NCBI GenBank assembly: GCA_031549865.1
Contig: JAVBPE010000018.1
Coordinates: 20,208 to 84,207 of the forward strand
Direction of reading: 5' to 3'
DNA length: 64,000 bases
From: Anaeroplasmataceae bacterium
GTDB lineage: Bacteria; Bacillota_I; Bacilli_A; Acholeplasmatales; Anaeroplasmataceae
Below, piece after piece: positions 22,713-47,790 of this stretch. How positions within the stretch are numbered: position 1 is the stretch's first letter; every line of letters begins with the position of its first letter. The notes beneath the pieces are model-generated. The model was not told the origin of the DNA, ran no database searches, and was given only the letters and a program-made list of their open reading frames with translations. A program made the position numbers and the translations under genes.

Positions 22713-23165
22713 ATGAAGATAGTAGCCACAAATAGAAAAGCCTCATTTGAATATTTCTTTTTAGAAACATATGAAGCAGGTATTAAACTAACTGGTACAG
22801 AAATAAAATCTGTAAGAGCAGGAAAACTTAATATTAATGATGCCTATGTCATAATTAGAAATGGAGTTCCATATATTTTAAATATGCATATTGCGAAATA
22901 TGAAAAAGGAAATATCTTCAATCATGATGAAACAAGAAGTAGAGAACTTTTACTTCATAAACATCAAATAATAAAACTTGCAACAAAAGTAAAACTAGAA
23001 GGTTTGGCTTTAGTCGCAACAAAAGTCTACTTTAAAGATGCCTTACTAAAAATAGAAGTAGCTTTATCTAAAGGTAAAAAACTAGAGGATAAAAGAGAAA
23101 CAATAAAAGAACGCGATAATAAGCGTGAAATACAAAAAGCAATAAAAATAAAAAATCAATATTAA
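22713..23165 (+). CDS. smpB: SsrA-binding protein SmpB
   Basis: 'NRKASFEYFF ... GTEIKS ... ELLLHK' is typical of SmpB. Sits immediately upstream of the tmRNA gene. Confidence 0.95.
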   Translation: MKIVATNRKASFEYFFLETYEAGIKLTGTEIKSVRAGKLNINDAYVIIRNGVPYILNMHIAKYEKGNIFNHDETRSRELLLHKHQIIKLATKVKLEGLALVATKVYFKDALLKIEVALSKGKKLEDKRETIKERDNKREIQKAIKIKNQY

Positions 23166-23193: not shown

Positions 23194-23572
23194 GGGCTAG
23201 TTATGGATTCGCCGTGGTTGATAAAACTTTATAAGCACGTCATGGTTGCGCATGTAAAAACGCCGAGGTTAAAATAACCGCAAAAACAAATTTATTTGCA
23301 CGTTCTAATAATATGAACGTTGCATACGCTTGCTAATTTAAATAACGTAAGCTCTCAAATATAAGCTTTCCTATGGCTTATATCTTGGGATCACTATAAT
23401 AGGATATATTTAGTTCGTGCCACCTTAACGAACTAAATGAAAACAATAAGGTTAGCTATAATCTAGTATGCTTTTCTACAAGATTATAGTGAATTTAAAT
23501 GAAAAGCTAAACGTGTAGAAAGTAAAGCCTAGTTGGCTGCGTACGGGAGTTCGAGTCTCCCCTGGTCCACCA
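23194..23572 (+). ncRNA. ssrA: tmRNA (SsrA)
   Basis: The 5' GGGCTAG pairs with the 3' CTGGTCC, with a G3:U wobble (alanine identity), then ACCA. T-arm 'GGGAGTTCGAGTCTCCC'. The 'AAAATAACC|GCA AAA ACA ...' resume context resembles E. coli 'AAAATAGTC|GCA'. The candidate tag ORF is 23280-23336 (AKTNLFARSNNMNVAYAC, then stop). Confidence 0.9.
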
Positions 23573-23584
23573 AATAGAAAGCAT

Positions 23585-23623
23585 AGGTTTGATACAATTT
23601 AACGAATTGTATTAAACCTTTTT
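23585..23623 (+). terminator. Rho-independent terminator of ssrA
   Basis: 15-bp stem aggtttgatacaatt / aattgtattaaacct (one G-U), followed by a T run. Confidence 0.8.
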
Positions 23624-23645
23624 CTTTGCTTTTTTAACCAAATAT

Positions 23646-23692
23646 AGCCGCTTTTAAGCAAAATAACCTGCTTAGAGCGGCTTTTATTTGTT
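23646..23692 (+). terminator. Second strong hairpin/terminator-like element
   Basis: agccgct..taagca (23646-23660) pairs with tgctta.agcggct (23669-23682), followed by a T-rich tract. Confidence 0.5.
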
Positions 23693-23747
23693 TTATAGAA
23701 GTATTGCTGAACGGAAAATAATATGTAGTTTGATGCTGCTTTTAATC

Positions 23748-23789
23748 ATTTAACGATTACAGGCGAAAAATCAACTATTTAACGATTAC
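23748..23789 (+). repeat. Two direct copies of the 13-mer ATTTAACGATTAC
   Basis: Exact copies at 23748-23760 and 23777-23789. A 9-nt partial copy (ATTTAACGA) lies in the ssrA terminator loop at 23597-23605. Confidence 0.8.
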
Positions 23790-23975
23790 CTGCTAGGGGT
23801 GCGTAAAAAAAGTTAAATAATTTTTTAAGCCACTTTAGACAGAATTTTCTCAATAAACAACTGTTTTGGCTACTCTAAATTGGATAAAAAGTTCATTTAA
23901 TATAAAGTTTCTCAAATCGCCCTTTTTGCAACTCTTAGTTGATTTGACATAGAAATTATTAGTGATAGAATTAAA

Positions 23976-24179
23976 GTGAATTTGCAGAGCTCGCTAATGA
24001 TATTCGGAAAGATGGTGATGTTGATGAACTTAACTAATGAAGAAACTAAAACACTTCTTGCAATATTAAAAACAGAAATTGTCGAAGTTGAAGACCTAAT
24101 TAAAAATGCAGATGTTGCAGATAAAGCTGAACTAGAAAAGCATTTAGTAATTGTGAAATCTATTAGTAAAAAAATATAA
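23976..24179 (+). CDS. Hypothetical small helical protein (start uncertain; 51-67 aa)
   Basis: ORF with several possible starts (GTG 23976, ATGs further in). Preceded by TTGACA-16-TAGAAT (about 23944-23971) and followed by a terminator. No clear RBS. Confidence 0.35.
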   Translation: MNLQSSLMIFGKMVMLMNLTNEETKTLLAILKTEIVEVEDLIKNADVADKAELEKHLVIVKSISKKI

Positions 24180-24186
24180 TCTTTTT

Positions 24187-24214
24187 CTCCAAGACCATTG
24201 TTTTGGAGTTTTTT
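24187..24214 (+). terminator. Terminator after the small ORF
   Basis: ctccaa pairs with ttggag, followed by T6. Confidence 0.55.
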
Positions 24215-24255
24215 ATTAAATTTTAAAAATAATCATATAAAATAGTGTTTTAGTA

Positions 24256-24284
24256 TTGACATACCAAATTTATTGTGATATAAT
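24256..24284 (+). promoter_or_regulatory. Near-consensus promoter of the R-M cluster
   Basis: TTGACA (24256-24261), 17 nt spacer, TGaTATAAT (24276-24284). The ORF-track TTG start at 24256 is this -35 box. Confidence 0.7.
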
Positions 24285-24309: not shown

Positions 24310-25905
24310 ATGATTAATAAATATTGGGTATTAGAAAGCTTATATAGAGCAACAGGAAATACAAATTCGATGGAGCCTATTTACAACGTATATAGAGTAT
24401 TAAAACTAAAAGAACTAGGGTTCGGATTAGAGTCAACGCCAGAAGACTTAATGTATGGGATGTATTCTGCAAATAGTTTTCCACCATTTAAAGGCGACGC
24501 TAGGAACTTTTATGAAATTTTTAAAATTATTTCTGGTTTTACAGTTGAAGGGTGCATTGATTATATAGAGTATATTCGTACCAGCCAGAAGAAATCTTCG
24601 GCTACTGAATTTATGATTCCAGATTCATTGGCAAAAATAATGATGAAATCCATTACTAATAGGGTATCAAAAATTTATATTCCGGATTGTGAAAAATACG
24701 GCATAGCATTTTACAATTTGATTAGTTCATACTCTGAATGTAAATTTTATACTTCTTGCGTGGATGCTGATCTGAAAAAGCTTTATCAACTATTATATGC
24801 ACATTTGAATGTTGAGTTTATAAATGCTGACATATACCGAGAAGACTTTGTGCATGAAAAGTTTGATATAATTATTTGCTTTCCTATCATGGGCGGTCGT
24901 TCGCTTATCGACAAAAGTGGTTTTATAAGTAATGAACCCGCCTTAATTGCAGCACAGAATTTGTTATATCATCTCTTTCCAGATGGAAATTTAACAATCG
25001 TATTACCGGCTAAAGTAACTTTTGGTGGTGGTGACGTTCAATACTTTAGAGATTATATAGATAGTAACTACAAGATTAATGAAATAAGTTCATTGCCAAA
25101 CAAATTATTTTATCCATACATGGCAATTAATACTTATTTATTTAACTTTTCAAATGGCGTAACAGAGGATATTATCTTACGTAAATATTCTCTTGAAAAA
25201 AACAATACAAGCGTTCTTCCTAAGTTAATAGTGGAAGATGAAAAGTTGTATTTTGAAGACGAATTTAGATCATTAAACGGCTGGTCTATTGATATGGCTT
25301 TTAATTCTAATGATGAAGAAATACTAAATTTCACAGAGTCACGAGTAAAAAAGAATCAGTTAAAAGATGTTGCAACCTTATTTAGAGGTAGAGCAATTAC
25401 TGAAAAAGCTGATGATGGTAATATTGCTATAATCAATATTTCAGATATTTCAGATACCGGCATTGATTATTCAAATTTATATTCTATTAATGAAGAAGAA
25501 CGTAAAATAAGCAGATATATTCTTGAAGAAGACGATGTGTTAATTACTGCCAGAGGAACGACTGTAAAAATCGCTGTGTTTAAAGAACAAACCAAGATTT
25601 GTATCCCGTCATCAAACATTATAGTTGCAAGAACAAACAAACTGTTAAAAGGCGCATATTTGAAACTCTTTTTAGAATCCAAGGTCGGCAGCAAGATGCT
25701 TAAGAACCTTCAAAGAGGCGCAACAATTGTAAACATTAATTATCAAGACGTTGAAATGATTGAAGTACCAGTTCCACCAATGGAAAAACAAGAAGAAGTT
25801 GTTGCTAACTATGAAGCTGGACTTGATTTGTATAAAAAAACAGTAACAGAAGCAGAAAAAGCTTGGAAGAAAATACAAGCAGTAATTGAAGATGAATTAT
25901 ATTAA
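24310..25905 (+). CDS. HsdM-like protein with degenerate catalytic motifs, fused to a single HsdS-type target recognition domain
   Basis: ATG at 24310 with ggagg 9 nt upstream. The N-terminal part aligns by eye with the two neighbouring HsdM proteins. 'EFMIPDSLAKIMM' aligns with 'EFYTPRTIVKLLV'. 'YIPDCEKYG' aligns with 'YDPACGTGG'. 'FDIIICFPIMGG' (CFPI at 24877-24888) aligns with 'FDCVIANPPFGL'. The C-terminal part is Methylase_S-like: 'LKDVATLFRGRAI ... DDVLITARGT ... GATIVNINYQDVEMIEVPVPPMEKQEE'. Confidence 0.7.
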   Translation: MINKYWVLESLYRATGNTNSMEPIYNVYRVLKLKELGFGLESTPEDLMYGMYSANSFPPFKGDARNFYEIFKIISGFTVEGCIDYIEYIRTSQKKSSATEFMIPDSLAKIMMKSITNRVSKIYIPDCEKYGIAFYNLISSYSECKFYTSCVDADLKKLYQLLYAHLNVEFINADIYREDFVHEKFDIIICFPIMGGRSLIDKSGFISNEPALIAAQNLLYHLFPDGNLTIVLPAKVTFGGGDVQYFRDYIDSNYKINEISSLPNKLFYPYMAINTYLFNFSNGVTEDIILRKYSLEKNNTSVLPKLIVEDEKLYFEDEFRSLNGWSIDMAFNSNDEEILNFTESRVKKNQLKDVATLFRGRAITEKADDGNIAIINISDISDTGIDYSNLYSINEEERKISRYILEEDDVLITARGTTVKIAVFKEQTKICIPSSNIIVARTNKLLKGAYLKLFLESKVGSKMLKNLQRGATIVNINYQDVEMIEVPVPPMEKQEEVVANYEAGLDLYKKTVTEAEKAWKKIQAVIEDELY

Positions 25906-25920
25906 AAGGAGTAGGAAAAT

Positions 25921-28326
25921 ATGCTAGGTGCAATTATAGGAGATATTGTTGGTTCAAGATATGAATTCAATAATGTCAAAACAAAAGAATTTGAATTTTT
26001 AAATTATAAATGCTTTTTTACAGATGATTCTGTAATGACAATGGCTATTGCGAAGGCAATCATTGAAAGTAAAAAAGACTACAGTGATCTAAATGAAAAG
26101 GCTGTAAAATATATGAGAACTATTGGACGTAACTATCCAGACTCAGGATATGGTGGAAGATTTTATGAATGGATGTTCTCTGATAATCCACAACCTTATA
26201 ATAGTTTTGGTAACGGAGCGGCAATGAGGGTTAGTGCTTGCGGATGGGTAGCAAATTCTATTAAAGAGGCCGTTATGCTTTCAAAGAGAGTTACTGAAGT
26301 TACGCATAATAACGCCGAGGGGATAAAAGGTGCTGAGGCGGTAGCTGTTGCAATATATTTGGCCAGAACTGGAAAAAATATTTTTGAAATTAGAGATTAT
26401 ATAAACAAAAATTATTATCCAATGAATTTTAGACTAGATGATATTCGTGAAACATATCAGTTCAATGAGACTTGTCAAGACACAGTGCCGCAAGCGATAA
26501 CTGCATTTCTAGAGTCGAATAGTTTTGAAGATGCAGTAAGAAATGCTGTTTCGATCGGAGGCGATAGCGATACATTGGCAGCCATAACTGGCAGTATTGC
26601 TGAAGCTTACTATGGGATTCCAACAGAAATTAAGAAGCATGCAATAACTTATTTAGACGAAAGATTGCTTGCAATTTTAACAGAGTTTGAAAATATATAT
26701 CCTTCACTTATGGAAAAAATTATTGAATCCAATAGTGTTGGAATAAAAACAAAAGAAAAATCTATTAAGAATGGAGGAAGATCAAAAATGATAGAAGACA
26801 CGATGAATAACGCAGACATTGATTTGCTTGAAAGTGAATTGTCTGCTGAAGAAATTTCTAGTAAAAAATTGTTTAATCATTTATTTGAGGCTTGCAACAT
26901 TCTTAGAGGGCCAATTAACCAAGATGAATACAAAAGTTATGTAACACCAATTTTATTTTTTAAGAGAATTTCTGATGTATATGATGAAGAAACCGAAAAA
27001 GCTTTAAACGATTCTGGAGGTGATGTGGATTTTGCTAGTTTTGATGAAAATCACAGTTTTGTTATTCCAGACAATTGCCATTGGAATGACGTTAGAGATG
27101 CAAGTTCTAACATTGGTACAGCTATTGTAAATGCAATGAGTGGCATTGAAAGGGCCAATCCTGATACCTTAAGTGGAATATTCAGTAGTTTTGATGATGC
27201 TACTTGGACAGATAAATCAAAACTATCTGATGAAAGGTTGAAAAATTTGATTGAACATATGTCCTCAATTAAAGTTGGAAACAATAATTATTCTGCAGAT
27301 GTAATGGGAGATGCATACGAATTTTTAATTAAAAAATTCGCAGATCTATCCAAGAAAAACGCTGGAGAATTTTACACACCTAGAACAATAGTAAAATTGC
27401 TAGTAAATTTACTTGATCCAAAACCAGGTGATGAGGTTTATGATCCTGCATGTGGAACTGGTGGTATGTTGATAGAAGCAATTCATCATATAAATAATGA
27501 TAGATTAACCTATGGAAGAATATATGGTCAAGAGAAAAATCTTGCCACATCAGCAATCGCTAGGATGAATCTATTTTTACATGGCGGTAAGGACTTTAAG
27601 ATATTACAAGGAGATACGCTTCGCAATCCAAAATTTTTAAGAGCAGGAAAAGTGCAAAAATTTGATTGCGTAATTGCAAATCCTCCATTTGGTTTAGATA
27701 AATGGGGTGCAGATCAATTTGAAGTAGATCCATATGGTCGTAACATATGGGGGACACCATCTGATACAAGCGCTGATTTTGCATGGCTTCAACACATGGT
27801 TTCATCAATGAAAAACAAAAATGGAAGATGTGCGGTAATTTTACCGCAGGGAGTGTTATTCCATGGTAGTAAAGCTGGGGAAATGCGAAATAAGCTCATT
27901 TCATCGGATGTAATTGAATGTGTGATCACTTTAGTTGGCGGCGTATTTTTTGCTGCAGGAGTAAATGCATGTATTTTACTATTAAATAATAATAAGCAAA
28001 ATGTGCACAAAGGGAAAATATGTATGATTGATGCAACAAAAATCTATACTGCAAAACGAGCACAAAATATAATGACAGAACAGAACATAGAGGAAGTATT
28101 TAAATTGTATCAGAACTATACAAATGTTATTGAAAAATGTGAGATTGTAGCGATAAAAGATTTATTAGATACATTAATGCCAAACGTCTATATAAAAAAA
28201 ATAATAGCTGGAAAAGTTTCATCATTAGAAATTAAAAAGCAATATATAATTAATTATGAAAAAATGGTTATTAGCGAAATGAAAGCGAAAAAACTTTTAT
28301 TAGAGGGAGGATACTTAGATGAGTAA
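25921..28326 (+). CDS. hsdM: ADP-ribosylglycohydrolase domain fused to Type I R-M methyltransferase subunit HsdM
   Basis: The first ~270 aa are ARH/DraG-like: 'MLGAIIGDIVGS', 'FTDDSVMT', 'GNGAAMRV', 'GGDSDT' (26557-26574). The rest has an HsdM_N-like 'ILRGPINQDEYKSYVTPILFFKRISDVYDEE', motif I 'DPACGTGG' and motif IV 'NPPF' (27679-27690). An in-frame GGAGGA-9 nt-ATG lies at 26773-26790. Confidence 0.8.
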   Translation: MLGAIIGDIVGSRYEFNNVKTKEFEFLNYKCFFTDDSVMTMAIAKAIIESKKDYSDLNEKAVKYMRTIGRNYPDSGYGGRFYEWMFSDNPQPYNSFGNGAAMRVSACGWVANSIKEAVMLSKRVTEVTHNNAEGIKGAEAVAVAIYLARTGKNIFEIRDYINKNYYPMNFRLDDIRETYQFNETCQDTVPQAITAFLESNSFEDAVRNAVSIGGDSDTLAAITGSIAEAYYGIPTEIKKHAITYLDERLLAILTEFENIYPSLMEKIIESNSVGIKTKEKSIKNGGRSKMIEDTMNNADIDLLESELSAEEISSKKLFNHLFEACNILRGPINQDEYKSYVTPILFFKRISDVYDEETEKALNDSGGDVDFASFDENHSFVIPDNCHWNDVRDASSNIGTAIVNAMSGIERANPDTLSGIFSSFDDATWTDKSKLSDERLKNLIEHMSSIKVGNNNYSADVMGDAYEFLIKKFADLSKKNAGEFYTPRTIVKLLVNLLDPKPGDEVYDPACGTGGMLIEAIHHINNDRLTYGRIYGQEKNLATSAIARMNLFLHGGKDFKILQGDTLRNPKFLRAGKVQKFDCVIANPPFGLDKWGADQFEVDPYGRNIWGTPSDTSADFAWLQHMVSSMKNKNGRCAVILPQGVLFHGSKAGEMRNKLISSDVIECVITLVGGVFFAAGVNACILLLNNNKQNVHKGKICMIDATKIYTAKRAQNIMTEQNIEEVFKLYQNYTNVIEKCEIVAIKDLLDTLMPNVYIKKIIAGKVSSLEIKKQYIINYEKMVISEMKAKKLLLEGGYLDE

Positions 28327-29815
28327 TAGAATTAAATTAGAAGATCTTGAAACATATTTATGGGATTCAGCGGTTTTATTGAGAACAAATATTGATGCTG
28401 GAGCATATAAGCAATATATTTTCCCTCTATTATTTTTCAAAAGAATTTGTGATGTTTATGATGAAGAAACAAATACTGCTTTTGATAAATATGGAAATGA
28501 TGCATTTGAATTTGATGAAGATGAATTGCACACTTTTATAATTCCTAAAGGATATCATTGGAATGATGTTAGAGAAACAACAGAAAATGTTGGTTTGTCT
28601 ATTATAACAGCATTTAGAAAAATTGAAAAAGCTAATAAAGAAAAACTACGTGGAGTATTTGGGGATGCCGCTTGGACTAATAAGAACAGATTACCAGACA
28701 AATTACTTAAGGATATTATAGAACATTTTAGCACTCAAACTTTATCCATTGAGAATTGTCCGGAAGATGAACTAGGACAAGGCTATGAATACTTAGTAAA
28801 GAAATTTGCTGACGATAGTGGACATACAGCACAAGAATTTTATACTAACAGAACTGTGGTTCATCTTATGACAGAAATGCTTCAACCAAAATCAGGAGAA
28901 TCTATATACGATCCGACATGTGGAAGTGCAGGCATGTTAATTTCCGCTATTGCATATCTGAAGTTGAAAGGTGCAGAATGGAGAAATGTCTCTATATATG
29001 GTCAAGAGATAAATTCATTATCATCTTCAATAGCAAAAATGAACCTTTTTCTACATGGCGTAAAAGATTTTAATATCGTAAATGATGACACTCTTGCTAT
29101 GCCTGCGTTTATAGAAAAAGGGAAATTAAAACAATTTGATATGGTCCTAGCAAATCCACCATATTCTATAAGCCAATGGGATAGAAAAGCATTTGAATCT
29201 GATAAATATGGTAGAAACTTCTTAGGTGTTCCGCCACAAGGTCGAGCTGATTATGCATTTATTCAACATATTCTTAAAAGCATGAGCTCTCAAAGTGGAA
29301 GATGCGCTATTTTATTACCTCATGGTGTTTTAAGTAGAAATGAGGAAAAAATAATAAGAGAAAAACTTCTTAAAGCAGATTTGTTAGAATGTGTTGTGGG
29401 TATTGGCAAAAATTTATTCTATAATAGTCCAATGGAAGCATGCATTATGATTTGTAGAACAAGAAAGCCAAAAGACAGAGTTGGTAAAGTGCTTTTTATA
29501 AATGCTAAAAACGAAATTACTAGAAAAGATTCCTTTAGTTACTTAGAAAACAAACATATAGAAAAAATTGTAGAGGCTTATAATAATTTTGACAAAATAA
29601 ATAATTTTGCAGAAGTTGTTAGTATTGGTGATTTGTTATCAAATAATTCATCTTTGAGTATCGGATATTATGTGAATCATATTGTCGAAAAGGCGAATGA
29701 TAAAGGTTTTAGTATCACTGATTGTTATTTAGAATGGATTAGTACTTCTGAAAAAATTAATGAAAAAATGTCAAATATTGTCGATTTGATAAAAGGTGGT
29801 GTTGACAATGAGTAA
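28319..29815 (+). CDS. hsdM: Type I R-M methyltransferase subunit HsdM (second paralogue)
   Basis: 'LFFKRICDVYDEE', 'EFYTNRTVV', 'DPTCGSAG' and 'NPPY' (29153-29164). Its start overlaps the upstream stop by 8 nt. Confidence 0.9.
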   Translation: MSNRIKLEDLETYLWDSAVLLRTNIDAGAYKQYIFPLLFFKRICDVYDEETNTAFDKYGNDAFEFDEDELHTFIIPKGYHWNDVRETTENVGLSIITAFRKIEKANKEKLRGVFGDAAWTNKNRLPDKLLKDIIEHFSTQTLSIENCPEDELGQGYEYLVKKFADDSGHTAQEFYTNRTVVHLMTEMLQPKSGESIYDPTCGSAGMLISAIAYLKLKGAEWRNVSIYGQEINSLSSSIAKMNLFLHGVKDFNIVNDDTLAMPAFIEKGKLKQFDMVLANPPYSISQWDRKAFESDKYGRNFLGVPPQGRADYAFIQHILKSMSSQSGRCAILLPHGVLSRNEEKIIREKLLKADLLECVVGIGKNLFYNSPMEACIMICRTRKPKDRVGKVLFINAKNEITRKDSFSYLENKHIEKIVEAYNNFDKINNFAEVVSIGDLLSNNSSLSIGYYVNHIVEKANDKGFSITDCYLEWISTSEKINEKMSNIVDLIKGGVDNE

Positions 29816-30959
29816 AATTAAATTAGGTGATGTATTAATTAGGGTGAAAGAATCGGTAGATAAAGATAATACTGATTTAGTTTATTATATTGGTGGAGAG
29901 CATTATGAATCAAGATCACTTACAATTAATAATAAAGGCAAAATAGAAGGTAGTACAATAGGCCCAGCTTTTAGCACAAAGTTCAAAGCGGGTGATGTAT
30001 TGTTAATGTCAAGAAATCCTCATTTAAGAAAAGCTGGAATTGTGAATTTTGATGGTATCTGTTCAGACGTAAGCTACATCATAAGAACTAAAGATGAAAA
30101 TGTTGTAATGCAGCAGTTTATTCCTATTTTATTTCAAAGCGATCTTTTTTGGGATTTTGCTGAAAAAAATAAAAAAGGATCAACTAATTTTTTCTTAAAT
30201 TGGAGTGATTTCGAAAGATTTGAGTTTGAATTGCCTACTTTGGATAAACAACAACAGTTAGTTAATGTTTTATGGGCTATAAATGACAATGTAGAATGTT
30301 ATAAGGAAATGCTATTGCAAAATGATAAATTAATTAGAGCAGAATTCGACGAAATGTGTGAAAACATAAAAGAAACTATTTCTTTAGCAGATTGTTGCAA
30401 AATCCATGCAAGAATTGGCTGGCAAGCATTGACAAAAAAAGAGCATTTAACCTCAGGAGAATTTTTGCTAATAACCGGTACTGATTTTTTAGATGGTGAA
30501 ATAAATTATTCAACCTGCGTCTATGTTTCTGAAGACAGGTACAAAATGGACGAACATATAATTTTAAAAGAGAATGATGTGCTTGTTACTAAAGATGGAA
30601 CGATTGGAAAAGTGGCAATTGTTCGTAATTTACCAAAACCTGCAACATTAAATAGTGGAATATTCGTTATAAGGCCAGATGATAGATTTAATAAAGAATT
30701 TATCTCATATGTTTTTACTGGTCCTGTCTTTGCAGAATTTGTTGATAAAGTTAAAACTGGAGCAACAATTAAGCACTTAAATCAAAATAAAATGTTGCAA
30801 TTCAAGATACCTCTTCCAACATATAAAAAGCAAGAAGATTTTGCAAAATTTGTTTGCATGATAATGGAAATTAAAAGATCATTGCAAGAAGGAATAATCC
30901 ATTTAAATAATGTTTATCAAAGAATCGTAAATCAAAATCTATCATTAAAGGAGGAATAA
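29808..30959 (+). CDS. hsdS: Type I R-M specificity subunit HsdS (two TRDs)
   Basis: I prefer the ATG at 29808, which overlaps the hsdM end. Two Methylase_S-like halves each end in a conserved helix: 'LPTLDKQQQLVNVL' and 'LPTYKKQEDFAKFV'. Confidence 0.85.
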   Translation: MSKIKLGDVLIRVKESVDKDNTDLVYYIGGEHYESRSLTINNKGKIEGSTIGPAFSTKFKAGDVLLMSRNPHLRKAGIVNFDGICSDVSYIIRTKDENVVMQQFIPILFQSDLFWDFAEKNKKGSTNFFLNWSDFERFEFELPTLDKQQQLVNVLWAINDNVECYKEMLLQNDKLIRAEFDEMCENIKETISLADCCKIHARIGWQALTKKEHLTSGEFLLITGTDFLDGEINYSTCVYVSEDRYKMDEHIILKENDVLVTKDGTIGKVAIVRNLPKPATLNSGIFVIRPDDRFNKEFISYVFTGPVFAEFVDKVKTGATIKHLNQNKMLQFKIPLPTYKKQEDFAKFVCMIMEIKRSLQEGIIHLNNVYQRIVNQNLSLKEE

Positions 30960-30960
30960 T

Positions 30961-33876
30961 ATGTCAGTATTTAATGAAGACAATACAATAGAGCAAATGA
31001 TCATTGCCACATTAAGTAGCAACGGCTGGAAGTTTGTTTCACCTGAAGACTTGAATCGTGAATTATCTGATGTGATGGTTGAATCAATGGTTAAGGATGC
31101 CTTAATTAGATTAAATCCTGAAATTGCGGAAGAACCGTCTCGTGCCGATGAAGTAATTTATAAGCTTCGTACATTGATTAATAGTGTTCAGGCACACAAT
31201 TTGGTCACTCAAAACGAAACATTTAAAAAATGGATCTTTGAAGAAAATTCTTATCCATTTGGTAAAGATGGAAGAATGGTACCAATCAGATTCTTTGGTA
31301 CCATAACAAAAGAAAACCTTAGCTTAAATGAATATGTAGTTACTAATCAATGGTCGTATCCTTGCGATGAAGGTGGAAAAAGACTAGACATTGTGCTTTT
31401 AATCAATGGATTTCCTATTGCGATTGGTGAATTAAAAACGCCGGTTCGTAGTGCTATTTCTTGGGTTGATGCTGCTTCGGATATTTTGAGTTATGAAAAA
31501 AGCATTCCTCAAATGTTTGTAACTAATGTATTCAATTTTGCAACAGAAGGAAAGTGTTTTAGATATGCAGCAATAAATGCAAACATGAATTTATGGGGAC
31601 CTTGGCATACAGATACACATAAAATTGAAGGCGGGTTAGCTGACGTTAAAATTAGTATTGAAGATATGATTACTCCTGAAAAAATAATGGATATTTTCCA
31701 ATTCTTCACAATGTTTGCAACGGATAAGAAATATAGAAAATATAAGATTATATGTCGCTATCAACAATATGAAGGAGCGAATTCTATAGTTCAAAGAGTT
31801 TTGACCGGATATCCAAAGAAGGGCTTGATATGGCATTTTCAAGGTTCTGGTAAATCGCTACTTATGGTATTTGCAGCACAAAAACTACGTATGGTTCCTG
31901 AATTAAGAAATCCAACAGTAGTAATAGTAGATGATCGTATTGATCTTGAAACACAAATTACCGCTACATTTAATGCATCAGATATTCCGAATCTTGCAAG
32001 CGCTGGTTCTAAAGAAGAGTTGATATCTTTCTTTAAGGGAGATATGCGAAAAATACTTATTACAACAATATTTAAATTTGGCGAAGTCGAAGGTGAATTA
32101 AATAGACGTGACAATATTATATTAATGGTTGATGAAGCGCATAGAACTCAAGAAGGTAATCTTGGTGAAAAAATGAGGCTTGCACTTCCAAACGCATTTT
32201 TCTTTGGATTAACTGGTACGCCAATTAATAGAGTTGACCGTAATACATTTGCAACTTTTGGTGCAGATGAGGATAGAAGCGGCTATATGAGCAAATATTC
32301 ATTCTCAGATTCTATTAGAGACAAAGCTACCTTACCTCTAAACTTTGAACCAGTTCCGGTGGACTTGCATGTTGATAAGGACACTTTGGATACAGAGTTC
32401 GATGTTTTAACGGAAAGCCTAACAGAGGAGCAAAGGGCGCAACTATCAGCAAGAGTAAACATGAAAGCAATATTTTATAGCCCTGCTCGTATTAAGAAAG
32501 TCTGCGAGCATATTGTAAAACACTACAGAGAGAAAATCGAGCCAAATGGTTATAAAGGACAAGTTGTGTGTTATGACCGAGAATGTTGTATCCGCTATAA
32601 AGAAGAATTTGACAAATTAATGGGTGAAGAAGAAACAACTGTAGTTATAGATACGAATAGCGATAAGGAAGATAGATATAAAAAGTTTAGACGAGATAGA
32701 GATGAAGAAGGACGAGTTCTTGATTCATTTAGGGATCCTAAAAGCTCATTAAAACTTGTAATTGTTACGGCAAAACTATTAACTGGCTTTGACGCTCCAA
32801 TTTTACAAGCAATGTATCTTGATAAACCGATGAAAGATCACACATTGTTACAAGCTATTTGTAGAACTAACCGTACTTATGATGAAGGAAAAACACATGG
32901 ATTAATTGTTGACTACACTGGTATTTTTGATAATGTGGCAAGAGCATTAGACTTCGATGAAAACACTATGAAGAAAATTATTTCTAACATTGAAGAAATA
33001 AAGAAACAATTACCTGCCTTGCTAAAAAAATGTTTGAGTTACTTTATGGGTGTGGATCGCACTGTACAGGGTTGGGAAGGTTTAATGGCTGCACAGGAGT
33101 GCCTACCAACTAACAAAGAAAAAGATGCTTTTGCTGCAGATTATAGAGTGTTAAACAGAGCATGGAATGCATTATCACCAGACGATTTCTTATTTCCATA
33201 TAGCGTTGATTATCAGTGGCTTTCAAAAGTTTACGAATCAGTTAAACCAACTGATGGAACTGGAAAATTAATCTGGAGTACTCTCGGACCAAAGACAATT
33301 GAATTGGTGCACAGAAATATATCTGTTGGAGCAGTCCATGATAATGAAGAAATACTAACGCTTGATGCCAATTTAATTGATGAGTTCATTTCAAAGAATG
33401 GCGATATTAAGAAAGCAACGAAGAAAATTGAAATTAGCCTGGTTTCCAAAATATTAGGACATAGCAACGAGCCGAGATTTGTAAAACTTGGTGAGAAACT
33501 TGAGGCTCTGCGTGAAAAACATGAGCAAGGATTAATCACTAGTATAGAATTCTTAAAGTTACTTTTGGAATTGGCAAAAGAAGCTGCACAAGCAGAAAAA
33601 GAATACGTGCCTGAAGATGAAGTGAATAAAGGTATCGCTGCTCTGACAGAATTGTTTAATAGCGTCAAAAATAGAGCAACTCCAATTATCGTTGAACGCA
33701 TTGTAAAAGATATTGATGACATAGTTAGAATTGTTAGATTCGATGGTTGGCAAAACACAACAGCAGGTAAGCAGGAAGTAAAAAAGGCGTTAAGAAGTGT
33801 TGTATGGATTAAATACAAGATTAAAGATATTGATGTATTTGATAAGTCATACAAGTATATAGAACAATACTATTAA
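30961..33876 (+). CDS. hsdR: Type I restriction enzyme R subunit HsdR
   Basis: N-terminal PD-(D/E)xK 'RLDIVLLINGFPIAIGELK', SF2 motif I 'FQGSGKSL', motif II 'MVDEAHRTQ', motif VI 'QAICRTNR'. The C-terminal helical domain is typical of HsdR. 971 aa. Confidence 0.9.
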   Translation: MSVFNEDNTIEQMIIATLSSNGWKFVSPEDLNRELSDVMVESMVKDALIRLNPEIAEEPSRADEVIYKLRTLINSVQAHNLVTQNETFKKWIFEENSYPFGKDGRMVPIRFFGTITKENLSLNEYVVTNQWSYPCDEGGKRLDIVLLINGFPIAIGELKTPVRSAISWVDAASDILSYEKSIPQMFVTNVFNFATEGKCFRYAAINANMNLWGPWHTDTHKIEGGLADVKISIEDMITPEKIMDIFQFFTMFATDKKYRKYKIICRYQQYEGANSIVQRVLTGYPKKGLIWHFQGSGKSLLMVFAAQKLRMVPELRNPTVVIVDDRIDLETQITATFNASDIPNLASAGSKEELISFFKGDMRKILITTIFKFGEVEGELNRRDNIILMVDEAHRTQEGNLGEKMRLALPNAFFFGLTGTPINRVDRNTFATFGADEDRSGYMSKYSFSDSIRDKATLPLNFEPVPVDLHVDKDTLDTEFDVLTESLTEEQRAQLSARVNMKAIFYSPARIKKVCEHIVKHYREKIEPNGYKGQVVCYDRECCIRYKEEFDKLMGEEETTVVIDTNSDKEDRYKKFRRDRDEEGRVLDSFRDPKSSLKLVIVTAKLLTGFDAPILQAMYLDKPMKDHTLLQAICRTNRTYDEGKTHGLIVDYTGIFDNVARALDFDENTMKKIISNIEEIKKQLPALLKKCLSYFMGVDRTVQGWEGLMAAQECLPTNKEKDAFAADYRVLNRAWNALSPDDFLFPYSVDYQWLSKVYESVKPTDGTGKLIWSTLGPKTIELVHRNISVGAVHDNEEILTLDANLIDEFISKNGDIKKATKKIEISLVSKILGHSNEPRFVKLGEKLEALREKHEQGLITSIEFLKLLLELAKEAAQAEKEYVPEDEVNKGIAALTELFNSVKNRATPIIVERIVKDIDDIVRIVRFDGWQNTTAGKQEVKKALRSVVWIKYKIKDIDVFDKSYKYIEQYY

Positions 33877-33897
33877 AATTTAAGGGAGGTGAACTGC

Positions 33898-35817
33898 ATG
33901 AGTTGCAATTCTGTTGAGAAATATATCGAAAACAAATATCGTGATTATATATTTTCTAAGATTTTAAAATTTTACAATGAAATAAAAAGTCATTTAGATA
34001 TGCATACTTATGCAGTTCCATATCCAACTTTTATAACATTAGACGAAATTACGGTAGAAAAGGTGTATTTTAAGGATGATATATTTGGAAAGAATCTTGA
34101 GTTCAAATTAGTTGTTAGAGCAGATTTTATTCTTAAAGGAGATCGCTTTAATGATTATGAGACAGATACACTTTACCGTAAGTTTACTGTTACGGGTACA
34201 GGAATTTTAAATAATGGAATTAGCAAATTCTACATTTCTGATGTTGAAGAGTATATAAATCAAGCGTATCAATATAAACATGCCTTGTCTGCGTTTGCTA
34301 TTCCATATATTTCAACGGATGATTTAGAATATAGAGCAGAAGAGTTTTTGACTAAGCATTGTAAAGAAGCACTTGAAGAACCGATGCAGTTACCATTAAA
34401 TAAAATTTTGATCAATATGAATGTAACTGTCTTTCATGCACCGTTAGGCAAAAGAATATTTGGAAAAACATTTTTTGCTCAATCAACTGAAAAAATTTAC
34501 AATGATGATAATGAAGTAGAAGATAAGCAAATATACGAAAGAACTATTTTAATAGATCCAGATGTGTTTTTCTTTAGAAATATAGGAACTTATAATAATA
34601 CAGTTATTCATGAGTGTATCCACGTGGAATATCATTCTAATTATTTTGAGCTTCAAAAACTAATAAATAGTTCATTAAAATCAATTGCATGTAAGGTTAA
34701 CAAGGGTTCAAAACAATTGAATACTAATGAACAAAAAGCACTAGATTTTATGGAATGGCAAGCAAGTATGTTGGCACCAAGAATACTGATGCCTGCGAAA
34801 ACAACAAAAATCAAATATCAGCAATTAATATCTGAAATTAATCAAGATTTCCCGTCATATCTAAAAGGAAAAAAGATGGAGATTTTGATTGACAGGTTAG
34901 CAGAGTTTTTTCAAGTCTCAAAACAAGCTGCAAAAATAAGACTTATAGATTTAGGCGTTGATGCTGCTGCTGGTGTGCAAAACTATGTAAATGGCAAAAA
35001 GATTCCTAGTTTTGCATTTAAAAGTCATTCTTTAAATCGTAATCAAACATTCATAATTGATTTTAAAGATTCAGTTAAAGAAATTAAAGTTAATCAAACG
35101 TTAAATTCACTTTCAATCGAAGGAAAGCTAGCATACATAAACGGAATGGTTGTGCTAAACTTACCGAAATATGTTATTAAAGATGATTTCGGTAATAAAG
35201 TTCTGACAAACTATGCTTTGGAGCATGTTGATGAATGTGCGTTTGTCTTTACAAAAGATACCTCACCAAACAAGAACACTTACAGTGAATATTTAGACAC
35301 AATGTGTTTTCTCTGCAGGCCAGAAAGCAAAGATGACTATGTTTCTGGTAACTATGATAGGACTTCAACTTCCAACAGACAACTTGAAAATGCCGGAATA
35401 TCCTTTTTAGATGAGTTAGACGATATTCATAATGCTAAAGCGTTGCTAAAAAAGATGAACGGAGAGTTTGCTGAAGATTTTCTAACTGTTGTAACTGAAT
35501 TAGGATATTTGAAATCAGATGGAATTCCCAATTATTATGCTATTTCTAAATTAACAAGTGTAACAGACCATACTATAAAGAATTATTTGGATGGTACAAG
35601 CACGCCACAAAAAGAAAAGTTGATAGCTATTTGCGGAGGATTATGTTTACATACAAAAGTGGCATATAAACTTCTTGAAAAAGCTAATCTTACAATTTTA
35701 AATAGTATGAATGAAACTGATCTTACTTATTGTGCTCTGATTGAAAGACATTACGATGAAGGTCTTGAAAAATGGAATGAATATTTAAGCGAAGCTAATT
35801 TTAATCAACTACCTTAA
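33898..35817 (+). CDS. Large ImmA/IrrE-type (M78, HExxH) metallopeptidase-domain protein with C-terminal XRE-like HTH
   Basis: I prefer the ATG at 33898 (gggagg 8 nt upstream), 21 nt after hsdR. Has 'HECIH' (34609-34623) and a downstream 'MEWQASMLAPRILMP' matching the ImmA ExxAxxFAxxLLMP block. The C-terminal 'ISKLTSVTDHTIKNYLDGTSTPQKEKLIAICGGL' is HTH-like. The N-terminal ~230 aa is unassigned. Confidence 0.65.
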   Translation: MSCNSVEKYIENKYRDYIFSKILKFYNEIKSHLDMHTYAVPYPTFITLDEITVEKVYFKDDIFGKNLEFKLVVRADFILKGDRFNDYETDTLYRKFTVTGTGILNNGISKFYISDVEEYINQAYQYKHALSAFAIPYISTDDLEYRAEEFLTKHCKEALEEPMQLPLNKILINMNVTVFHAPLGKRIFGKTFFAQSTEKIYNDDNEVEDKQIYERTILIDPDVFFFRNIGTYNNTVIHECIHVEYHSNYFELQKLINSSLKSIACKVNKGSKQLNTNEQKALDFMEWQASMLAPRILMPAKTTKIKYQQLISEINQDFPSYLKGKKMEILIDRLAEFFQVSKQAAKIRLIDLGVDAAAGVQNYVNGKKIPSFAFKSHSLNRNQTFIIDFKDSVKEIKVNQTLNSLSIEGKLAYINGMVVLNLPKYVIKDDFGNKVLTNYALEHVDECAFVFTKDTSPNKNTYSEYLDTMCFLCRPESKDDYVSGNYDRTSTSNRQLENAGISFLDELDDIHNAKALLKKMNGEFAEDFLTVVTELGYLKSDGIPNYYAISKLTSVTDHTIKNYLDGTSTPQKEKLIAICGGLCLHTKVAYKLLEKANLTILNSMNETDLTYCALIERHYDEGLEKWNEYLSEANFNQLP

Positions 35818-35825
35818 AAAAGTTT

Positions 35826-35950
35826 CTCGTAATGTATTACGAGTATAAAAACAATAAATTTAATAAATCTATAGGCTTTATGTCAAATCTAGTATTCTAG
35901 AAGAGGCATAAAGCCTTTTTTTATGCTTTAAGGCTCGTAATAGATTACGA
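35826..35950. repeat. Two copies of the palindrome CTCGTAAT-NN-ATTACGA
   Basis: Copies at 35826-35843 (ctcgtaatgtattacgag) and 35934-35950 (ctcgtaatagattacga) bracket the cluster terminator. Confidence 0.8.
35873..35922 (+). terminator. Strong terminator closing the R-M cluster
   Basis: 10-bp stem aggctttatg / cataaagcct with an inner 5-bp stem tctag / ctaga, followed by T7. Confidence 0.8.
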
Positions 35951-35967: not shown

Positions 35968-35976
35968 TGATATAAT
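35968..35976 (+). promoter_or_regulatory. Extended -10 promoter element (TGaTATAAT) at the left end of the phage region
   Basis: TGATATAAT at 35968-35976. No good -35. Confidence 0.4.
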
Positions 35977-36215: not shown

Positions 36216-36854
36216 ATGACTAAAACGAAAAAAACAAAGGATTTATATCCGAACATCTATGGCTACGGTAGCCTAGAACAACTAATGGCAGATCCAACAA
36301 GGTTTGGTGATAACCCAGACAAGCCACTAACAAGTTGGACAGCTTATAAAGATGCTGATGGCGACACGAGGTTTGTGCCATGCACAGAGGAGTTCTTTCA
36401 TTATATGAGAAATGAGGAACGCAACGACAGGAGGAAGAAGGACATCGAATCAAGATGTATGATCCCGTCTGAGAAATATGGGTTAGTAAAGTGTAGAGAA
36501 GATTGCAATCATTGTCCTTATAAGCAGAATGAGCTTGAGCCAGATGCTACAACGGATTTTGCTAGAACTGGAATAGCGGTATCTATTGATTACATGTATG
36601 AAAATTATGAATTTGAGTTTAGTGATGGTTCGTTTGAGGCTGATTGTGAAAAAAGAGAAAAGGAAGAACGTGACGCAGAAATGTGGAGACTTATTGACGA
36701 GTTAGGCGAAACAGACCAGACCATATTAAAACTTTACAACCAAGGTAAGACTGATGCTGCAATAGCTCTTGTTGTTAAGAAATCTCGAAGTGTTGTTCAG
36801 GAACGCAGAGTTAAACTAATCGACATGTTGAAAGAAAAATTGAAAAATTTTTGA
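36216..36854 (+). CDS. Phage protein with Cys-rich centre and C-terminal sigma-70 region-4-like HTH
   Basis: 'ETDQTILKLYNQGKTDAAIALVVKKSRSVVQERRVKLIDML' resembles sigma r4/LuxR-type HTH. 'CREDCNHCPY' is a Cys cluster. Confidence 0.55.
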   Translation: MTKTKKTKDLYPNIYGYGSLEQLMADPTRFGDNPDKPLTSWTAYKDADGDTRFVPCTEEFFHYMRNEERNDRRKKDIESRCMIPSEKYGLVKCREDCNHCPYKQNELEPDATTDFARTGIAVSIDYMYENYEFEFSDGSFEADCEKREKEERDAEMWRLIDELGETDQTILKLYNQGKTDAAIALVVKKSRSVVQERRVKLIDMLKEKLKNF

Positions 36855-45197: not shown

Positions 45198-45341
45198 GGG
45201 GATGCAAATCTCTAAAGAAGTTTATATAAACACCGAGCGTGGGGTTTCGTGCGAATTTTTTTCATTTCAAAGGGGGTATTAACCTTTGAGATATCTACAA
45301 AATATGATATAATTTTGTTAATTGAAAAGAGGATATTTATA

Positions 45342-46133
45342 ATGAAATTAATAACTGATACGAAGCAAATAATTGAATACTTAAAATTAAATCAACATAC
45401 TAATATTGTTCCGTTTGATACAAGTTATTTTGGATGCACTCACATGTCTGATATAGCACTTATAGATGAGGCTCTGAAAAAATTAGATCAAGATAAGATT
45501 CTAATATATAATGGAAAAGATATACAGTTTAATATCAGTGATATTCTTAAATATGAAGAATTCTATAATGTAAGAATGGAATTGGATAAACTTTATTGGT
45601 TCTTAATGCAATCATTAAGCGATGCTTATTGTGTCAAGCACTTTAAGCAAGTTAAGTTTACTACTTACATTACTAGAGAGGTAATGAATTCTTGTATTTA
45701 TAATTTTTCTTCTGTTGTTTCCATAGCAATTAATAAAATTTTTAAAGATAATAATGGAAAGTACAAAATAGAAGACATTGCATCTACAGTCAGAAAATAT
45801 TTAAAGAATTACCTGCTAACAAATGATTTGAAAACTGCAAAAACATTGAAAACTAATTTTTCGACATTTTCAGCAAGTGTTAATAATAAGATACAAGATT
45901 TCAATGATTATAGAGATACACTTTTTGCACATAGTGATAAGGATATAATGTTAAAGGTAGAAAATGTTGACATTAATTCCGCAACGGATATTTTGAAGAA
46001 ATGCTTAGATTATTGTGTTTCGCTTATTAATCTAATTGATGATAATAAAATATCGAATGAGCATATAGAAAACGAACTTAAGGATCGTGATTTAAAAGCT
46101 AATTATTTTTCAGCACAACTTATCAGAAAGTAA
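45342..46133 (+). CDS. Hypothetical low-GC accessory protein with an R-x4-H (HEPN-like) motif
   Basis: I prefer the ATG at 45342 (agagga RBS). 'YRDTLFAHSDKD' lies at 45912-45932. The gene is much more AT-rich than the flanking phage genes. Confidence 0.5.
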   Translation: MKLITDTKQIIEYLKLNQHTNIVPFDTSYFGCTHMSDIALIDEALKKLDQDKILIYNGKDIQFNISDILKYEEFYNVRMELDKLYWFLMQSLSDAYCVKHFKQVKFTTYITREVMNSCIYNFSSVVSIAINKIFKDNNGKYKIEDIASTVRKYLKNYLLTNDLKTAKTLKTNFSTFSASVNNKIQDFNDYRDTLFAHSDKDIMLKVENVDINSATDILKKCLDYCVSLINLIDDNKISNEHIENELKDRDLKANYFSAQLIRK

Positions 46134-46752: not shown

Positions 46753-47790
46753 ATGAGATTATTTTCAACAGAACAAATAAGTAAATATCACCCAGATAAA
46801 TACGCAGACCAAATAAGCGATGCAATATTAACTGAGTGTTTATCGCAAGACGAAAATAGCCATTGCGGAATCGAAACAATGGTAAAAGATAACACAGTTG
46901 TACTAGGTGGCGAAATAACATCAAATGCTGTTGTAGATTATGAAGAAGTTGTAAAGAGAGTTGCAAACAAACTAGGCTACTCGGTAGATAAGATAATTAA
47001 CTTAATTGGTAAGCAATCGCAAGAGATTAACAAAGCAGTGGAGTCAGATATAGAAATTGGCGCTGGTGATCAAGGGACAATGTTTGGTTATGCTACAAGT
47101 GAAACGGCATCTAAATTGCCTTTTGGCTTTGACTTAGCAAACAAGATTATAAAAGAAATAGAAATTGATGTGGAATTAAACCCCGATACGATATTAGTTG
47201 GCGATGCAAAAACACAAGTCACTGTTGACTTAGATAAAGAACCCGACATTAATTCTGTTGTCAGCGTTTTAGTTTCAGTTTGTCACAAAGAGCATGTTGG
47301 TATTGATAGTGTCAAAGATTATGTCAAAGCAATTATATCAAGATTGTTTGAAGGTTATGAAGTACCTGAATTAATAATCAACCCAAGTGGCTTATGGAAG
47401 ATTGGTGGACCAACTGCCGATTGTGGCTTGACAGGTCGAAAGATTGTGTGTGACCAATATGGAGGATACTGCGCAGTTGGTGGTGGCGCATTTTCTGGTA
47501 AAGATCCAAGTAAGGTTGATAGAAGTGCATCATATATGGCGAGATACATTGCTTGTAATTTACTAGAAGTTCATAAGCTTAAGTGGTGCGAGGTTCAACT
47601 GGCATATGCTATTGGTATTTCTGAGCCTGTATCAATTTCTATCAAGAATGATCGTGGATTAGATTTAGTAAATGAAGTAAGAAGTACTTATCCATTAACC
47701 CCAAGAGGAATTATCAATAAGCTTGGACTTTTAACTAAAGATTATGAAAAGATAGCTGAAGGTTGCCACTACAGAGAGGATGCAATATGA
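46753..47790 (+). CDS. metK: S-adenosylmethionine synthetase (compact phage-encoded MetK)
   Basis: 'YHPDKYADQISDAIL', 'GAGDQGTMFGYA', 'GGPTADCGLTGRKIV' and 'GGGAFSGKDPSKVDRSASYMARY' follow the MetK motifs in order. 345 aa. Confidence 0.9.
   Translation: MRLFSTEQISKYHPDKYADQISDAILTECLSQDENSHCGIETMVKDNTVVLGGEITSNAVVDYEEVVKRVANKLGYSVDKIINLIGKQSQEINKAVESDIEIGAGDQGTMFGYATSETASKLPFGFDLANKIIKEIEIDVELNPDTILVGDAKTQVTVDLDKEPDINSVVSVLVSVCHKEHVGIDSVKDYVKAIISRLFEGYEVPELIINPSGLWKIGGPTADCGLTGRKIVCDQYGGYCAVGGGAFSGKDPSKVDRSASYMARYIACNLLEVHKLKWCEVQLAYAIGISEPVSISIKNDRGLDLVNEVRSTYPLTPRGIINKLGLLTKDYEKIAEGCHYREDAI

Follow-up and report, generated by a model that had tools for sequence, protein, structure and literature searches.

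A fused M78 peptidase and helix-turn-helix protein beside prophage-borne restriction genes: a candidate single-chain switch for early lytic transcription

Several described regulators pair a zinc peptidase of the M78 family with a DNA-binding protein of the XRE type. In ImmA/ImmR, which is found in ICEBs1 and in phage modules, a protease with an HExxH motif and a downstream Glu acts with an XRE-type repressor to control the induction of an integrated element; the two are encoded by separate adjacent genes, with the operators at a divergent promoter. IrrE/DdrO and CapP/CapH are likewise made of separate proteins, which govern repair or immune operons, and both DdrO and CapH consist of an XRE-type helix-turn-helix (HTH) followed by short helices. 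The protease of CapP/CapH is itself built of a peptidase domain, a central HTH, and a GAF domain at the C terminus. IrrE and CapP are activated by single-stranded DNA (ssDNA) bound between their peptidase and GAF domains, and CapP has an autoinhibitory "cysteine switch" in the loop between HExxH and the third ligand (PMC13228613). Here, we describe a protein of 639 amino acids (aa) encoded in a 64,000-nucleotide (nt) stretch of contig JAVBPE010000018.1 from an Anaeroplasmataceae bacterium (the whole stretch is hereafter the window), directly downstream of the restriction-modification (R-M) gene hsdR. We read it as a protease of the IrrE/CapP kind joined to an HTH of the DdrO/CapH kind and preceded by an extra N-terminal domain. 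We see roughly even chances that it is a CapP/CapH- or ImmA/ImmR-like switch in a single chain, which gates early lytic transcription of a prophage and is inactivated by its own protease. The gene and the domains of its product are as follows.

33883-33892, plus strand: strong ribosome-binding site of the protease-HTH gene, AAGGGAGGTG, 6 nt before ATG 33898
33898-35817, plus strand: protease-HTH open reading frame (ORF), 639 codons without stops
33898-34302, plus strand: N-terminal alpha+beta domain (residues 1-135), one long helix and a four-stranded sheet in the AlphaFold model
34303-34977, plus strand: M78 (IrrE/CapP/ImmA-type) zinc peptidase domain and helical segment (residues ~136-360)
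34978-35367, plus strand: beta-rich middle domain (residues ~361-490), from AlphaFold secondary structure
35467-35814, plus strand: C-terminal XRE-type HTH, five helices at residues 524-595 in the AlphaFold model

A preliminary description of this DNA had already recognized the open frame, which is real, although with a length of 640 rather than 639 aa. The 21-nt gap to hsdR that it reported is confirmed, the hsdR stop codon being at 33874-33876. An alternative upstream start, GTG at 33889, would give a longer ORF, and ATG 33898 is favored over it because of the position of AAGGGAGGTG. The three blocks quoted in that description are all present in the protein, namely HECIH (residues 238-242, nt 34609-34623), MEWQASMLAPRILMP (residues 285-299, nt 34750-34794), and the HTH-like ISKLTSVTDHTIKNYLDGTSTPQKEKLIAICGGL (residues 548-581), but the last of these is not at the extreme C terminus, as had been stated; it ends about 60 residues earlier.

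An M78/IrrE-type peptidase fused to an XRE-type HTH, as originally proposed, is backed by Pfam, by a structural match to IrrE, and by a profile of the C-terminal region. Pfam Peptidase_M78 (PF06114) covers residues 235-349 with a marginal score (expect value (E) 1e-4, 22.5 bits against a cutoff of 22), capP is the sole PADLOC match (E 3e-6), and a scan of the protein with NCBIfam gave no matching model. In an alignment of 83 homologues, all of which carry protease and HTH in a single ORF, H238, E239, H242, H246, E286, and A289 are invariant, and W287 and Q288 are nearly so (82 and 81 of 83, respectively). Glu286, the third zinc ligand, lies in MEWQA within a conserved E-x-x-A...LMP block, 44 residues past the second His; an inserted loop makes this distance longer than in CapP. 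The segment from HExxH to Glu286 also contains Cys265 (nt 34690-34692), which is present in 80 of the 83 homologues, usually as ISCxVVE, and whose position is analogous to that of C114, the cysteine switch of CapP (PMC13228613).

The AlphaFold model, built on 52 sequences, has a mean predicted local distance difference test (pLDDT) score of 88.1 and a predicted template modeling (pTM) score of 0.79. It resolves the peptidase region into a core (residues ~136-300) and a helical segment (300-360), and ends with a helical C-terminal region (491-639). When compared with the PDB using Foldseek, the top match was IrrE (3dti/3dte; E 3.9e-4, probability 1.0, 213 columns), with a target-side TM-score of only 0.41. 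The HExxH region therefore does model as an M78 fold, the failure of which had been named in advance as grounds for abandoning the assignment. The second match (probability 1.0) was the fused XRE/M78-like regulator PrpR of Mycobacterium tuberculosis (6cyy). Phmmer found no match for the whole protein among PDB sequences, and a Foldseek search of the BFVD viral structures returned nothing useful, the best match being an 83-aa fragment. The N-terminal domain has weak VirB8/NTF2-like Foldseek matches (probability ~0.3). After the peptidase, the helical segment and the beta-rich domain, in which N421, C447, and F451 are invariant, follow as the IrrE alignment would allow; no domain-level GAF match was obtained for this part of the protein, which may nevertheless be the counterpart of the GAF-like sensor domain of IrrE and CapP.

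As assessed from the window sequence alone, the HTH is weak (HTH_19, E 0.14). When a profile of 81 family C termini was searched against the PDB, the best match was C.BclI (E 9e-8), with further matches to Stl, HipB, C.Esp1396I, and P22 C2. Pfam HTH_26 is matched in the C termini of 70 of these 81 family members, and hhalign of the C-terminal region against HTH_26 gives P 1.4e-3. The recognition helix falls at about residues 557-565, and two further conserved helices (residues 606-632) could form a dimerization element. When checked for a swapped C terminus, three homologues that align only over residues 1-480 (P0131, P0160, and P0199) proved to retain a similar HTH after a variable linker, and one other (P0133) is a frameshift product.

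Compared with ImmA/ImmR, the protein thus shares the catalytic motifs and, as predicted here, the control of an integrated element, but it is one chain with additional N-terminal and beta-rich domains, its HTH is C-terminal to the protease, and its predicted operators lie 3' of the gene, where they flank a terminator. IrrE/DdrO and CapP/CapH are similar in the protease and in the C-terminal plan, XRE-type HTH then short helices, and differ in that protease and substrate-like domain are fused here and that the apparent target, as judged from sequence, is a phage early promoter. PrpR/RamB-type proteins (6cyy/6cz6) also unite an XRE-type HTH and an M78-like fold in a single chain, with the reversed domain order, HTH first. 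PrpR regulates metabolism and is not known to act as a protease; in the family described here, none of the catalytic residues varies. The proposed logic also resembles that of lambda CI and LexA, in which DNA binding and an inactivating protease share one chain, DNA damage is the trigger, and cooperative binding is implied by the pairing of the operators; the likeness goes no further than analogy, the protease being an S24 serine peptidase there and an M78 zinc peptidase here. Finally, the controller (C) proteins C.BclI, C.Esp1396I, and C.AhdI, which include the closest PDB sequence matches of the HTH, are found beside restriction genes and bind pairs of short palindromes, as is predicted here. 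They are, however, ~80 aa long, are encoded at the head of R-M operons, and have upstream operators, whereas the 639-aa protein is encoded at the 3' end of an operon with its sites downstream. Whether the fusion is the known ImmA/ImmR or CapP/CapH kind of switch logic, newly in a single chain, we hold to be evenly balanced.

Immediately after the gene there is a cassette of two identical-armed palindromes flanking a terminator, followed by a candidate promoter.

35827-35842, no strand: operator-like palindrome O1, TCGTAAT-GT-ATTACGA (TCGTAATGTATTACGA), 10 nt after the stop codon
35873-35923, plus strand: intrinsic terminator of the cargo and protease-HTH operon, hairpin AGGCTTTATG...CATAAAGCCT and T run
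35935-35950, no strand: operator-like palindrome O2, TCGTAAT-AG-ATTACGA (TCGTAATAGATTACGA), 108 base pairs (bp) after O1
35968-35976, plus strand: candidate extended -10 promoter for rightward early transcription, TGATATAAT, read by eye

O1 and O2 are the only two exact copies in the 64 kb, and none was found in 100 shuffles. A scan for consensus promoters made no call at 35968-35976 and found no -35 element; the center of O2 is ~30 bp upstream of the candidate -10 hexamer. The same O1-terminator-O2 layout was seen in all 17 loci inspected by eye, and a palindrome pair lies after the gene, facing the phage early genes, in 127 of 156 loci with enough flanking sequence. Palindrome arms are conserved and spacers vary, and the GC-rich terminator with its T run is separate from the palindromes. 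The distance between O1 and O2 is multimodal, with peaks at ~88, 100, 110.5, 121, 132.5, and 141.5 bp, i.e. a period of ~10.5-11 bp. Such helical phasing points to a protein complex bridging the two DNA sites, which would produce it. Together with the phage replication module, the cassette is the constant partner of the protease-HTH gene.

In four loci with class B palindromes (see below; L046, L049, L055, and L068), a conserved sequence extends from ~5 to 70 bp after O2. It consists of GGCAAAC, ~18 nt, TAGTATTAAGGCATGAG, and then a second short palindrome, e.g. GAGTTAGCTAACTC or GGTTGGCCAACC, and may be an early promoter with a leader element.

Across homologues, the palindromes fall into four classes, and the class goes together with the recognition helix that the adjacent protein carries in its HTH (typical helices are given).

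Class A: GGAAGT-N3-ACTTCC, helix SSRMIQDYRN / DRYIQDLRK
Class B: CGGACA-N5-TGTCCG, helix KTIQRMRND / ERTIRRIVNG
Class C: WAAGT-N3-ACTTW, helix TQTISKYxN / TVSISxYRN
Class D (clade of the window): TCGTAAY-N2-RTTACGA, helix D(H/K)TIK(N/S/T)Y

Relatives with KTIQNMRN in place of KTIQRMRN have GGAAAT-type sites. The match between helix and palindrome is kept where an inserted gene has displaced the protein from the cassette (L045), and in phage NatCom_21982 (L002), where cargo and protease-HTH gene are inverted as a block with respect to the cassette. The gene that follows the cassette encodes a sigma-70 region-4 protein (Sigma70_r4_2) in 20 of 72 loci and is otherwise variable; as it varies even within one class, the protease-HTH protein is the only constant adjacent DNA-binding candidate. 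The same variation led us to reject the 212-aa protein encoded downstream in the window as the main candidate for binding the palindromes. Host LexA boxes are unlikely, there being several palindrome classes across related hosts. No other XRE-type gene was found in the scanned parts of the window prophage.

What is directly observed comprises the domain identities, the conserved cassette, and the synteny that the gene keeps with phage genes on one side and restriction cargo on the other. A single-chain switch would bring them together as follows. Expression of the gene in the lysogen would start from the sigma-70 promoter (24256-24284), and transcription would meet its first terminator at 35873. 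As a presumed dimer, the C-terminal HTH would bind O1 and O2 on either side of its own operon's terminator, just before the early promoter from which the sigma-like factor and then the replication genes would be transcribed. Bound O1 and O2, together with the terminator, would silence the early lytic operon while the upstream cargo operon is transcribed. A damage signal, possibly ssDNA by analogy with IrrE and CapP, would activate the protease, perhaps via the cysteine-switch loop at Cys265, and the protease would cut the DNA-binding or dimerization part of the same or a neighboring copy. Cleavage would free the early promoter and lead to prophage induction. The restriction operon would be cargo occupying a hotspot that separates the attachment site from the gene; it would ride on, or drive, the same lysogen-expressed transcription unit and would not be a mechanistic partner.

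Several points weigh against such a switch. As read from the sequences, the correlation between helix and palindrome follows clades, with about five or six independent switches, and shared ancestry could produce much of it. O2 is upstream of a candidate -10 hexamer with no visible -35 element, a position from which either an activator or a repressor could act. The true repressor could be the product of a small XRE gene that some loci have on the minus strand just beyond the cassette. The integrase and any other regulators, at the right end of the prophage, lie outside the 64-kb window, and binding to O1/O2, cleavage, and lysogen expression are inferences. Moreover, the cargo is almost only of the restriction type and not mixed, which a pure hotspot model leaves unexplained; restriction and switch may therefore be functionally coupled.

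The gene probably encodes the main regulator of a lineage of temperate siphophages (Heliusvirales-like in Clostridia and Bacilli, phi-m46.1-like in streptococci). If so, the lysis-lysogeny switch of these phages would be named, its operators would be defined, and immunity classes could be told from the sequence. The protein would also show that ImmA/ImmR and CapP/CapH logic can collapse into one self-contained chain, and these phages would have a predictable hotspot for restriction systems or resistance genes. This would concern a large family that is without functional annotation and that is also found in phi-m46.1-like streptococcal phages carrying antibiotic-resistance genes.

Over its full length, the protein belongs to PHROG 4031, which is labeled "unknown function" (E 3e-131), and database records name family members "hypothetical protein." An exhaustive search (E up to 1e-30) gave 363 clusters at 50% identity, a word-indexed search gave 252 matches, and the proteins hold their full length of ~620-660 aa. 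Members are found in 352 species-representative genomes, mostly of Bacillota, and in 374 IMG/VR contigs, where the gene is often the first of the prophage. There are also 48 phage records, of the Streptococcus suis and Streptococcus pyogenes phi-m46.1/phi-SsUD.1 type and of Heliusvirales of Oscillospiraceae and Ruminococcus. Heliusvirales-like prophages are reported to be widespread in the human gut (PMC11283538). Our literature search found nothing specific on a fused M78-HTH phage repressor or on this protein family.

The genes on both sides define the setting of the locus in the window.

22713-23165, just before ssrA: smpB (Pfam SmpB)
23194-23572, plus strand: host transfer-messenger RNA (tmRNA) gene ssrA, left junction of the prophage/island (ARAGORN)
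36216-36854, plus strand: first early gene, 212-aa sigma-70/extracytoplasmic function-like protein (NCBIfam TIGR02937, E 2.6e-6)
37082, after the sigma-like gene: DUF2800 nuclease (Pfam/PHROGs)
38281, after DUF2800: AAA_24 protein (Pfam/PHROGs)
39707, after AAA_24: helicase (Pfam/PHROGs)
41306, after the helicase: primase (Pfam/PHROGs)

Because host genes (enolase, RNase R, and SmpB, by Pfam) and the tmRNA lie upstream of the R-M operon and phage genes lie downstream, the window holds a prophage beside ssrA. The left end of this prophage is the R-M operon and the protease-HTH gene, the order in the window being tmRNA, cargo, protease-HTH gene, replication genes, and further ORFs. Genes for RusA, a DUF1492 protein, HNH, TerS, MetK, and a ParB-methylase follow downstream, and later ORFs on the same strand occupy the position of structural genes, as judged by position alone. 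DUF2800 is encoded downstream of the homologue in 37 of 82 loci. Megablast of the 23-44 kb region against known phages gave no nucleotide match.

The upstream cargo consists of a Type I restriction operon (genes identified with Pfam, PADLOC, and NCBIfam).

24256-24284, plus strand: sigma-70 promoter of the restriction operon, TTGACA-17-TATAAT with a TG extension, 12 of 12 positions
24310-25905, plus strand: HsdS-like protein with a partial methylase segment
25921-28326, plus strand: ADP-ribosylglycohydrolase (ARH)::HsdM fusion
28319-29815, plus strand: HsdM
29796-30959, plus strand: HsdS
30961-33876, plus strand: HsdR

No terminator-like site was found on the plus strand between 24208 and 35826, for which reason the six genes of 24310-35817 look like one transcription unit. 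In the fusion, the ARH domain (residues 1-233) is N-terminal to a complete HsdM, and an ordinary second HsdM comes next. The same five-gene layout is found in at least five other loci (L004, L014, L015, L019, and L021), and the Type I module also has weak NCBIfam matches to MADS2 and MADS5.

We surveyed the neighborhoods of homologues in two independent samples. Among 80 genome loci, 59 of 79 upstream neighbors have the same orientation as the homologue, most of them <50 nt away. The gene directly upstream is HsdR/ResIII-type in 15 loci, HsdS in 5, LlaJI in 3, McrBC in 2, and BrxL and GmrSD in 1 each, and a small divergent HTH gene in 14; the next three co-oriented genes include HsdS (21), HsdM (16), AAA_5 (10), C5 methylases (7), and shufflon recombinases (8). 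Neighbors in the IMG/VR loci include HsdS (19), ResIII (11), GmrSD (8), McrBC (3), and HTH_26 (15). Restriction genes, in either orientation, are thus directly upstream in most loci of both samples, and the preferential linkage that the preliminary description had expected for homologues is borne out. The types of cargo comprise Type I, Type II (MvaI/BcnI, FokI-like), Type III, LlaJI, McrBC, GmrSD, and BREX, and S. suis phages have antibiotic-resistance genes and an XRE gene at the same position. The Type I family of the window is upstream of the homologue in ~14 loci, with HsdR 74-85% identical and often with the ARH-HsdM fusion; the protease-HTH proteins of these loci are only 31-52% identical.

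The preliminary description also treated the gene as a component of the hsd operon as such, and this part does not stand, as the same gene adjoins Type I, II, and III systems, LlaJI, McrBC, GmrSD, BREX, and resistance cargo. An accessory subunit of Type I enzymes would be found only with hsdRMS, and here other restriction types and resistance genes adjoin the gene. The restriction association is with a class of cargo at a fixed position, a generic hotspot, and not with hsdR in particular.

This linkage raises the alternative that the protein is a CapP/CapH-like regulator of the adjacent restriction operon, which would raise or time its expression on DNA damage or infection and could delay restriction until a new host is methylated, as a controller protein does. 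Besides the restriction cargo directly upstream, often at <50 nt, it is in line with capP as the sole PADLOC match, with C.BclI, an R-M controller, as the best PDB match of the HTH, and with the regulation of many immune operons by CapP and CapH (PMC13228613). A repressor of the CapP/CapH kind would, however, sit at the promoter of the adjacent immune operon, and both copies of the palindrome in the 64 kb are downstream of the gene, with no O1/O2-type site near the R-M promoter of the window. Likewise, in the 127 loci with a palindrome pair after the gene, the pair faces the early genes and not the cargo promoter. Where the cargo is Type II, it includes a small controller-like HTH_26 gene of its own, and the S. 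suis phage homologues adjoin resistance rather than restriction genes. The locus that best fits this alternative is that of NatCom_21982, where an inverted cassette (L002, 740-1100) heads a LlaJI-type R-M operon containing the protease-HTH gene, but the reversed direction of its terminator suggests that cargo and gene were inverted there as one block. On balance, we consider regulation of the adjacent operon unlikely.

The position of O2 relative to the candidate -10 hexamer and the lack of a clear -35 element in the early promoters would also fit an activator, which at O2 would turn on the early sigma-like gene, or would switch role after cleavage, while another protein maintains lysogeny. 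Repression itself could then fall to the small XRE genes that some loci have past the cassette, on the minus strand. These genes are absent from most loci, the window included, and the protease-HTH gene is co-transcribed, from a consensus constitutive promoter, with cargo that is needed in the lysogen; a lytic-gene activator made constitutively would be harmful. We therefore regard an activator as rather improbable.

As improbable, in our estimate, is a lysis-lysogeny switch coupled to restriction, which would sense DNA ends or ssDNA from cuts made by the neighboring enzymes and answer with prophage induction or timed restriction. On this reading, the near-exclusive pairing with restriction systems would be functional, and the cut DNA could be that of an invading phage, or that of the host chromosome when methylation lapses. 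If this were so, the coupled switch would be shared by a very common gut prophage lineage. The preliminary suggestion of a signal-gated regulator or effector coupled to restriction is plausible for the signal-gated regulator, and its effector part is without direct support.

ArdC is an anti-restriction protein that contains a metalloprotease. An ArdC-like protease for anti-restriction or restriction alleviation, which would degrade the host's enzymes at entry or the phage's own during establishment, could account for the constant proximity of restriction genes and for the intact metalloprotease site. The neighboring nucleases (HsdR, McrBC, GmrSD, LlaJI, FokI-like, and BrxL) are mutually unrelated, so that no common substrate is apparent; a sequence-specific HTH and a phased palindrome pair are left unexplained; and a Pfam scan of the protein found neither ArdC-N nor any other ssDNA-binding family. 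This makes such a role very unlikely. COG2856-XRE pairs have reportedly been proposed as toxin-antitoxin (TA)-like modules in defense islands, and such a TA-like or abortive-infection module in one chain, protecting the lysogen from other phages, would suit a location among defense genes, yet it is the most improbable of the readings given that, unlike mobile TA cassettes, this is a conserved, syntenic, single-copy backbone gene across at least 350 species, that Pfam, PADLOC, and NCBIfam scans find no toxin domain, and that the cassette faces the early genes.

The single-chain switch gating early lytic transcription thus stays our preferred reading. As to the cargo itself, loci that seem cargo-free have a divergent HTH_26 gene, which heads Type II or III R-M operons (MvaI/BcnI, FokI-like, C5/N6 methylases); this head gene is found in either orientation and is absent from the window. 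More generally, a conserved HTH_26 protein of 71-78 aa (consensus M.ISYKKLWKLLIDKDMKKKDL) is encoded at the front of R-M cargo operons of Types I, II, and III. Its gene is on the minus strand, ~150 bp upstream of the homologue, in nine loci (L011, L013, L023, L034, L055, L064, L069, L078, and L080), and on the plus strand at the cargo head in five (L046, L068, L072, L076, and L082). These proteins, which are the real C-like genes of the loci and separate from the protease-HTH gene, appear to form a family of controller (C) proteins that serve restriction systems carried by phages.

A 340-aa tyrosine recombinase and extra copies of hsdS accompany several of the upstream Type I systems (L006, L008, L016, L018, L020, L037, L094-L096, and L129), which is the layout of phase-variable (shufflon-type) specificity switching, here borne by prophages. 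In one 825-aa homologue (P0029), an HsdS half-domain is annotated in front of the protease-HTH protein; hsdS directly abuts the gene in this locus, and the merger is probably a read-through or gene-calling artifact.

In the window, the ~700-bp junction between ssrA and the R-M promoter (23573-24255) has the 13-nt sequence ATTTAACGATTAC twice, as exact direct repeats at 23748 and 23777. In the same junction there is an ORF of 67 aa (23976-24179) without a family match, with a near-consensus promoter at 23944-23971 and a terminator at 24187-24208. Further into the prophage, near the terminase genes, there is an AbiU2-like HEPN protein (45249-46133, plus strand; weak match, E 3e-5). An S-adenosylmethionine synthetase gene (46753-47790, plus strand) and a ParB-N6/N4 methyltransferase fusion (47763-49046, plus strand) are found shortly before the terminase genes.

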